From positions 14,004,124 to 14,068,123 of the forward strand of contig CM119265.1 of assembly GCA_051294375.1 (NCBI GenBank): 64,000 bases of DNA, read 5' to 3'. This document shows positions 3,201 to 49,899 of this stretch, piece after piece. The notes below the pieces were generated by a model. That model was given only the letters and a program-made list of their open reading frames with translations. It ran no database searches and was not told the origin of the DNA. A program made the position numbers and the translations under genes. The first letter of the stretch is position 1; each line of letters opens with the position of its first letter. The stretch is from Paraspadella gotoi. Lineage: Eukaryota; Animalia; Chaetognatha.

Positions 3201-3567
3201 GATGAAACAAGCGTAGACGGGTTTAGGGACGAATGTCTGAAGCACGTGTAGTGTGCCAAGGAGCGGACGCGGAGATAAGCAAACTTGAACGAATTCTGAG
3301 AAAATAATCAAGAGTTTGAAAAAACTCGTACGTTCAATCGATATTAATTATAAACATACCATCGACATGGAGCGTACTAACGCTTTCGTCCAACGTTGGA
3401 ATGACGGTCAAGTTTTCGTTGATTACTTGGCGATTGTCAAATAGCAGAGATAGACCGTCAGAGCAACGGTCTGTTTCGAAATACAGTTTGACAATTCGTT
3501 GAAAAAGTAGTTTCAATACTTCTGTGTGACCTAGTTTGATATTGTCCGATTTAGGACTGTCAAACAT
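219..3567 (-). CDS. Uncharacterised ~1094-aa protein: helical/TPR-like N-terminal half fused to a degenerate DEAD-box (eIF4A-like) helicase; exons 3567-3360, 3295-219
   Basis: The 77-aa ORF joins the 1030-aa ORF in frame through a GT-AG intron (3359-3296). The C-terminal half aligns by eye with eIF4A (FLAGEDLVG, LQGVVLV, IRILLLDEI, RVLVISRNRESV, GVIMVTS). SEKVLGEFHPLTA resembles kinesin-light-chain-type TPRs. Confidence 0.7.
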
Positions 3568-3990
3568 TATTTGAGTTCACAGGTTAACTAGTACCTAAAA
3601 CCCATGGAAAGACTGTCATGTCGTATAGTAAAATATTTGGCTTAAATAAATAAGATAATAGATCTTCGCGCGATCAAGGCCACGCGTTGTTTTTGCAACA
3701 GCCAAAAAATTACCTTTTTTGTAACTTTTATCAAAAATAGGCACAGTGGAATAGAAATTTATGACAAAAAACCTACAAATTAACAGAAGTTTTTTTTTTC
3801 AGGACAAAAAAGTTACAACGATATTTATTAAGCGATTTATTCATATTTTACTCCATTGAAGGCGAAAATCTAGACTAGAGTAGATAAGAAAGATAGCACA
3901 CTGGTAAATAAGAAAAAAATAACCAAAAGAAAAAGGTGAAAAGAAAAGGTATATTAACATGTACAGGAGGGTAGTCCAGTGGAAAACCCA

Positions 3991-4789
3991 TTAACTTCTG
4001 AGTGCATCCAATCTTGCCGCCATTGCTCCTACGTCCTCCTCCTCATCCGGATCGGCCGTGGCGGGAAGGGATAACGCGGGAAGCGTGTCGCCCACAGCGT
4101 CGGGAGCTTCTCCCAACTGACCTGAATTCGACGAAGGTTTAGAAAAACCCGCTCATATTGCAAAAACAATTCTTCAACCTAATTTTAACCTTTGGTCAAT
4201 TCCCACAAAACTTTTTCGACCTCCGAATCAGCGGCTTCTTCGAGCTCTTCATCATCAAGGCCTTCCATGGTATCTTCAAGCATTTCTTCGATGATTCCGG
4301 CTTTCATCATCTTGCGAAAATATGAAAATTTAAGCGAATAAAGAATTAATGGATGATCAACGGATAAATGTAGAAATCAGGGCTGCGCACCTCCTTTGAC
4401 ATTTCCTGCATCGTTGCTTGTATTTCTGGAATTTTAATGAGTCTTTGCATGGACTGCATGACGGCGGTGCTCTTCTCCAATGCGCCGGTCACCTTGACAA
4501 CGGACAACTGGTTCTGCATCTGCATCTGAATGGAATTAATGTGCGCCTTGGAAGCGTACATCTTCTTCACGGCTTTTCGAGAATTGATGACTTCCTTGGC
4601 CAGCACTTTGCAAACGTCCTTGTCACCCTTTTTCGCTGCCTGACGAAGGGACAGAGCGACTTTGGCTTCTTCCCGTTGGATTTGGCGGACTTGCCGCTCG
4701 ATGTGATTCTGTTCTTTGCGAAGTTTGGAATTCCACTCGCGAACTTGTTCTTTTGGATCTCGGCCTGACGATTTGCCAAACAATCCCAT
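3991..4789 (-). CDS. CHMP3: ESCRT-III subunit CHMP3/VPS24, ~216 aa; exons 4789-4391, 4310-4190, 4121-3991
   Basis: MGLFGKS...KMYASKAHINS...KIPEIQATMQEMSKE|MMKAGIIEEM; two GT-AG introns keep the frame. Confidence 0.95.
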
Positions 4790-47600: not shown

Positions 47601-48575
47601 TGGTGGATGAAAATACACCATCCGTTCAGACTCAGACAATTTCACTAATTTATTTCTCAATGAGTAATTTTTTGATAAAAAATAGAATTTACCATGAAAA
47701 CAAAAACTTCATGGCTTTAAAAAAAGTGCGTACTGTTTAATTATATATTTTTCGGTTTTAGCGATCTCAAATTTTTTTTTAGAATATTTATTTGCATTTA
47801 CGGCGGGTTCCAACTATTTTTTTAAAAAACTATTATTATATATCCCAATAATGACTTTAAAAAAACTATCCGATTTGGCTATATGCAAATTTTTCCGATT
47901 TTAGCTTACGAATCGATCATAGTGAAGTGTATGGAACATGTCATTTTAATTGCAAACTGGAAATAATATTTATTATTTTTATTAAAAAATTTGTCTTTGT
48001 TGTTAATTAATTAATTAATTAATTTTTACAAACAATCCGTATTCCGTAAGTGGATATACTATTATGGTGGACTAAAATCCACCAACCGTTCATCAGTGGC
48101 CATTGGTGCCGGAGACAAGTCATTCGCCTCCCAACCCAAAGGTCCGGGGTTCTAGCCCGGTGGCCGCCTAGCAGTTAAGAGGGACGGGGCGCTTAACCCG
48201 CCTGTAACTTGGTGTTACAGCCTGATCCGAAGCTCAGGGACTGCTTATATTGAACGGTTCTGTCACTAACACATAACAATAATTACTGTCTCTTCACTAT
48301 GTTGTACAAGCTGTACAAACACTAGCGAAAAGAGAACCAATTCACTTACCAGGGGGAACATTGGTGACGACGAAAGATCCGTCTTCCTTAAGGAAACCAA
48401 TATATTTTCCTCCGTCTACTAATATTCTAGTGGAGGTAACCCAATCCAAGTCGGGGGAATGAGGTATCGAGACCTTGCCTTCCAAGGTGAAAGAGCTCGT
48501 TGAAGAATCTTCCTCTGCACCCGAAATGGTCACAAAGAAAGCTAGCGTTGCAATCCATATCATAGGCCGCTTCAT
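44631..48575 (-). CDS. EMC7: ER membrane protein complex subunit 7, ~237 aa; exons 48575-48350, 47214-47045, 46058-45959, 44848-44631
   Basis: Signal peptide; [48 protein letters not shown]...[20 protein letters not shown]. Confidence 0.95.
45690..45910 (+). mobile_element. tRNA-derived SINE-like insertion in an EMC7 intron
   Basis: Pol III A-box-like TGGCGCAGTG and B-box-like GGTTCTAGCCC followed by a GC-richer body within an AT-rich intron. Confidence 0.55.
46215..46662. repeat. 26-bp minisatellite GATTGATTGATGCAAAGATAGCAAAT, ~17 copies
   Basis: Near-perfect head-to-tail copies without spacers. Confidence 0.95.
48095..48280 (+). mobile_element. tRNA-derived SINE-like insertion in EMC7 intron 1
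   Basis: tRNA-like head (TGGTGCCGGAG...CCTCCCAACCCAAAGGTCCGGGGTTCTAGCCCGG) followed by a hairpin-rich body and an A/C-rich tail. Confidence 0.6.
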
Positions 48576-49899
48576 TTTTATGTCGTTTTTATGTCTTTGA
48601 CTTATTAAATCAATTCTGCGACAGAATAAAATAAATTATCACGGACTGACTTCGAACAGAAAATGCGAAATACGCTTTTTAAGTTACTGGTAGCCCAGCG
48701 CAATCATTCCCCATTAAAATACAAAAACTTTAAACCGCTCTATTAATAAGAGAAAAAAATATCTTTAAGCAAATTAAAAATGTTAGCTGTATGGTATAGT
48801 AAAACCTGTATTTGAGTCCTTATGTTTTCGATAAGATTTTTTTTCTATATGGGCTAAAACTATTTATAAATAAAAATTTTACAAATCCCCCCCCAAAAAA
48901 GAAATATATTCATTCGAATTTTGTGGCATTTCTCATTTCCTGATTCAGTTTAACTTTTTTAATATATAATGGGATGAAATAGAAATACGAAACAAATTTT
49001 GTCCACCGATAAACACGAGTTGATATGAAGTACGTATCAAATTTGTATAGTAAGTACAAGACAAGTGTGGACAAATAAAAAAATGTGCGAACACTTTAAC
49101 GCTCAACAATAATGAGCCACAAGAAAAAAATTATGACTATATAAATCACAAACACAATATTACTATTCAGTTATGTAGTAAATTGCAACTTTGGCTTTAA
49201 TCTATGTTTAAACTTATTGATAAAATTAGTTGATAGATTAGATATAATCATAGTTAACAACTTGGTACAGTGAGGATTTAGGAGTTTACTGTTTAGGCAC
49301 TAATAATGCATGAGCACCACAGGTGGAAAGGTCATGGGTTATAAAAATGATTCAAGAGGTAGTTTACTACTTTACATACTAGATAAAACGGCTATATCAC
49401 GAGCCTGAACTATTTTTAACGTCCTTATTATGAAAACCAACTTAGATTTTTTAAATGTTAACAAGTACCTATCGAATGGAAGACTACGAAATAAATATTA
49501 CGTGAAAGCGAAATTGGGTTGGTTGTTAAAAGAACCAACAAGGTAAAGATGAAAGAACTCGAAGCATGTTGACCATTTCAAAGAAGGGACTGTTGACAAG
49601 CGTCTCACAGCTTCAGTTCTTCACATCAATACCTAATAATGAACATAAAAATAACGGAAACAACAAGTTGCTTCCCTTAGGTGATTCCTAGTCGTGCAAT
49701 GTGAGTTAAATACGAAAAAATTCCGGAAATGCCTTAAATTTTTAAAAATCCACAAATTCATTTCTAACTAATAGCATTACCAATATTAAGCCGATGATAA
49801 TATTAATAGTTACCATGCATACATAAACATTGTTCTAATATTCTTTCTCTGCGACATTGCGACTTCAAGTAAAACCTTTAATTTTTGAAAAGACGTCGC

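Follow-up and report, generated by a model that had tools for sequence, protein, structure and literature searches.

Candidate spliced-leader acceptors and operon-sized spacers among co-oriented housekeeping genes in 64 kb of probable chaetognath DNA

Within the window, by which we mean the whole 64-kb stretch of DNA analysed here, housekeeping genes lie co-oriented and, in part, closely packed, and we consider it highly probable that they are transcribed polycistronically and that the AG above each start codon takes a 36-nt spliced leader to yield capped single-gene mRNAs. This reading draws on the gene packing itself, on an enrichment of acceptors that resemble real ones, on the use in splicing of the AG upstream of ISPD, and on the presence of a leader on the NDUFA12 mRNA of a relative. 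The genes would share promoters and the polymerase would read through the short spacers to generate a polycistronic RNA. The upstream mRNA would then be cleaved and polyadenylated next to the acceptor, and the spliceosome would join the leader to each particular AG in turn. A cryptic donor located upstream on the same precursor can also take an acceptor in cis, as described below for HSCB and ISPD.

All 18 genes identified in the 64 kb are carried on the minus strand, and none of ten plus-strand open reading frames tested gave a Pfam match. Gene models were rebuilt by coordinates and 14 genes could be translated without internal stops, with SMG1 yielding a model of 4120 aa and 11 introns. Families were assigned from Pfam and from named homologues. 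The names MPC2, WDR6, ABHD12, PRR14-like and LRSAM1-like, mostly carried over from the initial annotation, are presumed to apply; the searches yielded only domain families for the last four and no family match for MPC2. Stop-to-ATG spacers fall in the range 58–246 nt, with a GC content of 13–36%, in eight of the 15 cases measured, and the remaining seven extend over 423–2136 nt. When operon-sized spacers are defined as for Paraspadella gotoi (<250 bp; PMC12460157), with membership extending to at least two co-oriented genes, runs of four and six genes are found:

17940..35990, minus strand: candidate four-gene operon SMG1-APTX-metallopeptidase-ABHD12, with spacers of 128, 61 and 58 nt
5632..15803, minus strand: candidate six-gene operon WDR6-MSH2-HSCB-ISPD-BOLA2-MPC2, with spacers of 83, 246, 150, about 230 and 90 nt

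The ISPD-BOLA2 spacer measures 232 nt when the stop is placed according to the rebuilt gene model. Genes of the tight runs (9000-35990) are intron-poor, MSH2 having a single intron and SMG1 a last exon of 5.5 kb, and BOLA2, APTX and RAB5IF have no introns; by contrast, at least 17 introns are inferred for the LRSAM1-like gene (55500-62700). The TPR gene (219-3567) encodes 1094 aa with a weak TPR match, and its C-terminal half, which gave no Pfam or PDB match, has by eye the appearance of a degenerate helicase-like region. Aprataxin usually has an N-terminal FHA domain; the APTX-like ORF (21309-22106) carries HIT and zinc-finger domains, and the N-terminal FHA match was absent in Pfam.

The initial annotation had proposed unpaired 3' splice acceptors upstream of nearly every start codon and had named 14 AG motifs, all of which do occur on the minus strand where it placed them, 0–78 nt upstream of in-frame ATGs. 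They are given here together with a further candidate at the alpha/beta-hydrolase gene and with neighbouring sites that bear on their use:

3595..3596, minus strand: candidate acceptor AG of the TPR-repeat gene, weak; ATG at 3567
3642-3641 and 3713, minus strand: alternative AG and donor-like GT, respectively, in the TPR-repeat gene spacer
4830..4831, minus strand: candidate acceptor of CHMP3/Snf7, weak; ATG at 4789, alternative AG at 4859-4858
4991, minus strand: donor-like GT in the CHMP3 spacer
6074..6075, minus strand: candidate acceptor of MPC2, weak score; ATG at 6053, spacer of 90 nt
6432..6433, minus strand: strong acceptor of BOLA2; ATG at 6410, T-rich tract upstream, spacer without a good donor
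7760..7761, minus strand: strong acceptor of ISPD; ATG at 7681, used as a 3' splice site with donor 8085
8084..8085, minus strand: cryptic 5' donor (AAG-GT) within the HSCB coding exon, spliced to the ISPD acceptor
8764..8765, minus strand: strong acceptor of HSCB, 10 nt upstream of the ATG at 8753
11922..11923, minus strand: candidate acceptor of MSH2; ATG at 11897, spacer of 83 nt without a usable GT
15848..15849, minus strand: strong acceptor of the WD40 gene (WDR6); ATG at 15803, with an out-of-frame ATG at 15840 downstream of the AG
20140..20141, minus strand: candidate acceptor of the alpha/beta-hydrolase gene (ABHD12-like), absent from the initial list; ATG at 20108, spacer of 58 nt
21258..21289, minus strand: APTX-metallopeptidase spacer (61 nt) with TACTAAC at 21289-21283 and AG at 21259-21258, without a usable donor
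22043..22108, minus strand: APTX start region; the AG first proposed (22108-22107), abutting an ATG, is weak
35995..35996, minus strand: good acceptor of SMG1, 4 nt upstream of the ATG at 35990
36790..36960, minus strand: RAB5IF start region; the AAAG-ATG first proposed (36791-36790) is outscored by AGs at 36959 and 36892
42805..42806, minus strand: candidate acceptor of NDUFA12, weak score; ATG at 42790, and the closest relative's transcript bears a chaetognath leader
48616..48617, minus strand: good acceptor of EMC7, 40 nt upstream of the ATG at 48575

For APTX, the AG at 22044-22043, upstream of the ATG at 22004, outscores the one first chosen. Since better AGs are available for both APTX (22043) and RAB5IF (36959/36892), the original choices at these two genes are doubtful and were probably the wrong AG. 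The MPC2 candidate (6074..6075) sits downstream of the sole upstream ATG in its spacer.

To score these sites we constructed a weight matrix. It used 46 acceptors of introns within the window, of which 13 are backed by RNA contigs and 33 were inferred, either visually or from the reading frame; an earlier matrix based on 17 introns was discarded as too noisy. Six of the 14 named sites (BOLA2, ISPD, HSCB, WDR6, SMG1 and EMC7) rank at the 65th to 93rd percentile of real acceptors and the other eight at the 4th to 22nd, such that the claim of acceptors before nearly every start is too broad, only these six resembling the intron acceptors; strong sites are nonetheless enriched. A score of at least 2.5 was reached upstream of 7 of 16 starts compared with 20 of 193 control windows of other non-coding DNA on the same strand (Fisher p=0.0014); both the threshold of 2.5 and the search length of 80 nt were chosen post hoc. 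The comparison with shuffled DNA that had been suggested earlier proved borderline: relative to dinucleotide shuffles, the best sites upstream of the 16 ATGs gave p=0.038 within 60 nt and p=0.094 within 100 nt. It had also been cautioned that T-rich AG motifs are common, and this is borne out by a loose rule (AG with at least four T upstream) that fits 14 of the 16 starts but also 144 of the 193 controls, so that the motif alone says little. Neither branch-like motifs (7 of 14 leader sites against 30 of 46 introns) nor T content (0.49 against 0.46) separate leader sites from introns, and both were set aside as discriminators. TACTAAC occurs twice on the minus strand, once in the APTX-metallopeptidase spacer as described initially and once at 58886-58880, at a similar distance upstream of an inferred intron acceptor (58853).

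Whether the acceptors are unpaired varies among the spacers. No GT lies at least 50 nt upstream of the AG in the ISPD, MSH2, metallopeptidase and ABHD12 spacers, and the original description as unpaired stands for the first three, which it had covered; the HSCB, TPR-gene and CHMP3 spacers each contain a donor-like GT with a score of 4.3–4.5. At HSCB, the GT at 8843 could pair with 8764..8765 to define an 80-nt UTR intron, and a contig runs across this region unspliced.

Evidence on splicing was provided by contigs of a sequencing run, X1, which is tentatively taken to be RNA and contains 0.85 of the sampled words; of two further runs, X2 gave no contig on the window and X3 two short pieces. 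Its contigs behave as RNA, in that 13 of the 15 joints listed, out of 29, are GT-AG skips, comprising 12 coding introns and one joint between HSCB and ISPD. The latter, which was seen again in a second contig check, connects donor 8085 in the HSCB coding exon with the ISPD AG at 7761-7760. It shows that the ISPD AG is a functional 3' splice site, with sequence of both HSCB and ISPD on a single molecule. In the spliced product HSCB would end early, at 212 aa instead of 284. This is the sole splice seen at any leader-type AG and it is a cis splice. Cis-splicing to upstream non-coding exons had been named at the outset as an observation that would speak against leader addition; the single case found here, at ISPD, employs a donor in the upstream coding region and not in a non-coding first exon.

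Elsewhere X1 contigs, which extend up to position 22600 and as assemblies cannot show 5' ends or prove single molecules, pass unspliced through eight of the ten originally named acceptors in the range covered, and this fits a read-through precursor and plain overlapping UTRs equally well. Leader letters were absent from the eight loose contig ends shown of 122, all eight of which lie at repeats, and from the second contig check, where the single loose end was unrelated; short leaders probably tend to be pruned during assembly. The contig of BOLA2 stops at 6433, on the A of its predicted acceptor, and that of ISPD at 6473. Neither was counted as a mark of leader addition because the ends of contigs from a single study do not reveal where an RNA starts and because a similar unexplained end (7931), together with a hole at 7760-7930, falls within HSCB coding sequence. 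Moreover, the published leader ends in AAA and would not share the AG at 6433. A separate X1 contig of 824 nt shares 71 nt (6121-6191) spanning the BOLA2 stop and the MPC2 spacer, with three substitutions and a 4-nt insertion, and then continues as unrelated sequence; we read it as a second allele or a duplicate upstream of MPC2.

Evidence for a leader arose from comparisons with relatives. MSH2 shows 69–76% identity to three sequences and at most 56% to named animals, and in a quick tree of 33 rows it forms, with those three, a separate long-stemmed clade of four rows that lies outside the sampled molluscs, annelid, nemertean, ambulacrarians, vertebrates and cnidarians, tunicates and rotifers not being represented in the tree. 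RAB5IF and NDUFA12 exhibit a similar pattern. For NDUFA12, the top blastp match to exon 2 of the window gene (69.6%) is a cluster member, P0313, which opens with MG-EAYNWVVSICLN ahead of the normal start, its own stop being read through as W. This opening includes EAYNWVVSICL, which corresponds to bases 2-34 of the published leader SL2.0 translated with TGA as W (PMC2481426, Table 3). The chance expectation of such a match is about 3e-8 when 90 leader frames are compared with 470 proteins, and among those 470 proteins the leader peptide was found in P0313 only. Window NDUFA12 and P0313 fall in one clade of 11 rows (support 100/99) in a tree of 37 rows, which were a chosen subset of 88 matches plus three cluster members. 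Window NDUFA12 is placed apart from the nematode rows, and neither the NDUFA12 nor the MSH2 tree contains a tunicate sequence.

Judged from these sequences, leader addition is shown for one gene of the window, NDUFA12, in the copy of a close relative, and the window itself likely belongs, on this indirect evidence, in Chaetognatha, none of the matches bearing the name of a chaetognath. As NDUFA12 is separated from the next gene upstream by 1.8 kb, the leader there bears on trans-splicing and not on operon membership. Together with the lineage and the operon-sized spacers, the SL2.0 sequence of the relative supports the original proposal that the AGs are leader addition sites for the cluster as a whole and not for each AG. 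Searches at other genes were negative. The 61 loci that a metagenome scan with the RAB5IF alignment yielded included no member of the close clade, and in none of them did the initial 200 nt contain a leader end; no leader peptide was seen where relatives of RAB5IF and MSH2 are extended at the N terminus; and 150 matches to BOLA2 included neither close relatives nor the peptide. Within the 64-kb window there was no leader-like match and no Rfam match.

Leaders of 36 nt, present in two chaetognath orders, and one operon have been reported for Spadella cephaloptera (PMC2481426), and the chaetognath SL genes lie within the 5S cluster (PMC2566580). For P. gotoi, 10,197 of 21,072 genes are given as trans-spliced, with 18% in operons defined by distances of <250 bp and a longest reported operon of nine genes (PMC12460157). 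The window resembles this system in belonging, by tree and leader evidence, to the same phylum, and in its housekeeping genes less than 250 bp apart on one strand, with a 36-nt leader on a relative's transcript. It is a fresh instance of an already known chaetognath system and leaves existing knowledge unchanged. The operon table of PMC12460157 may already list these genes, and six of the window's gene names did not occur in three of its PDF supplements. In the S. cephaloptera operon the poly(A) site precedes the acceptor by 3 nt (PMC2481426), whereas stop-to-AG distances in the short spacers of the window are 49–234 nt. The proposed resolution of polycistronic RNA at unpaired acceptors is shared with the operons of nematodes (C. 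elegans, with SL2) and tunicates (Ciona and Oikopleura), for which median intercistronic distances are about 100 bp in C. elegans, 1 bp in Ciona and 31–33 bp in Oikopleura (PMC7986045). The chaetognath leader differs from theirs and, in contrast to C. elegans SL2, an operon-specific leader is unreported for chaetognaths in the accessible text of PMC2481426 and PMC12460157.

Spacers of 58–90 nt at 13–36% GC are too small for a promoter, and the HSCB-to-ISPD splice requires one RNA extending over both genes. These observations weigh against the genes being trans-spliced but mostly monocistronic, with their own promoters inside the 3' end of the upstream gene and short outrons, so that the cluster would not be one unit; we regard that as quite improbable. 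It would accord with the excess of trans-spliced genes, nearly half, over operonic genes in P. gotoi (PMC12460157) and with the seven long spacers, and for EMC7, NDUFA12 and WDR6, which lie behind long spacers, a monocistronic trans-spliced state is likely. Very improbable, in our judgement, is an explanation without any leader, whereby the AGs would either serve introns of the 5' UTR as normal cis acceptors or be T-rich motifs that arose by chance, among genes with separate promoters and overlapping UTRs. The frequency of the loose motif in the controls, the donor-like GTs at 8843, 3713 and 4991, and the cis nature of the lone observed splice are all compatible with it, and a compact annelid genome without operons or leaders exists (PMC7854359). 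Nevertheless, contigs run unspliced over all three donor-bearing spacers, four spacers have no donor, and SL trans-splicing is known in the lineage and is attested by the leader on the relative's NDUFA12 mRNA.

Within the favoured reading of polycistronic RNA resolved by leader addition, we also considered, as a rather unlikely extension, that the stretch of about 37 kb between RAB5IF and the TPR gene, both included, with its 13 genes, constitutes one or two very long polycistronic units, at least one of them exceeding nine genes, in which cis splicing competes with leader addition and the HSCB donor takes the ISPD acceptor. If so, full-length HSCB would be traded for an HSCB-ISPD joined RNA. 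The favoured reading itself, if true, would add two concrete candidate operons, of four and six genes, in a phylum where trans-splicing arose independently, along with a single observed instance in which the acceptor of an operon gene is used in cis and corrected gene starts for APTX and RAB5IF.

Several repeats were encountered between and within the genes. An intron of WDR6 contains a GC-rich element of 255 nt (14826-15080) that ends in a hairpin, has a better fold than shuffled sequence (z -2.6) and shows an extreme summed X1 contig depth (bin mean 21322 against about 105 around it). Rfam gave no match to this element, which was rejected as a known SL RNA, and it is likely a high-copy mobile element. 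Degenerate TTAGGG-like arrays occupy 16240-16750 in the 2.1-kb ABHD12-WDR6 spacer, and related minisatellites of 22–26 nt are located at 43000-43810, in the EMC7-NDUFA12 spacer, and at 46143-46663, in an EMC7 intron.
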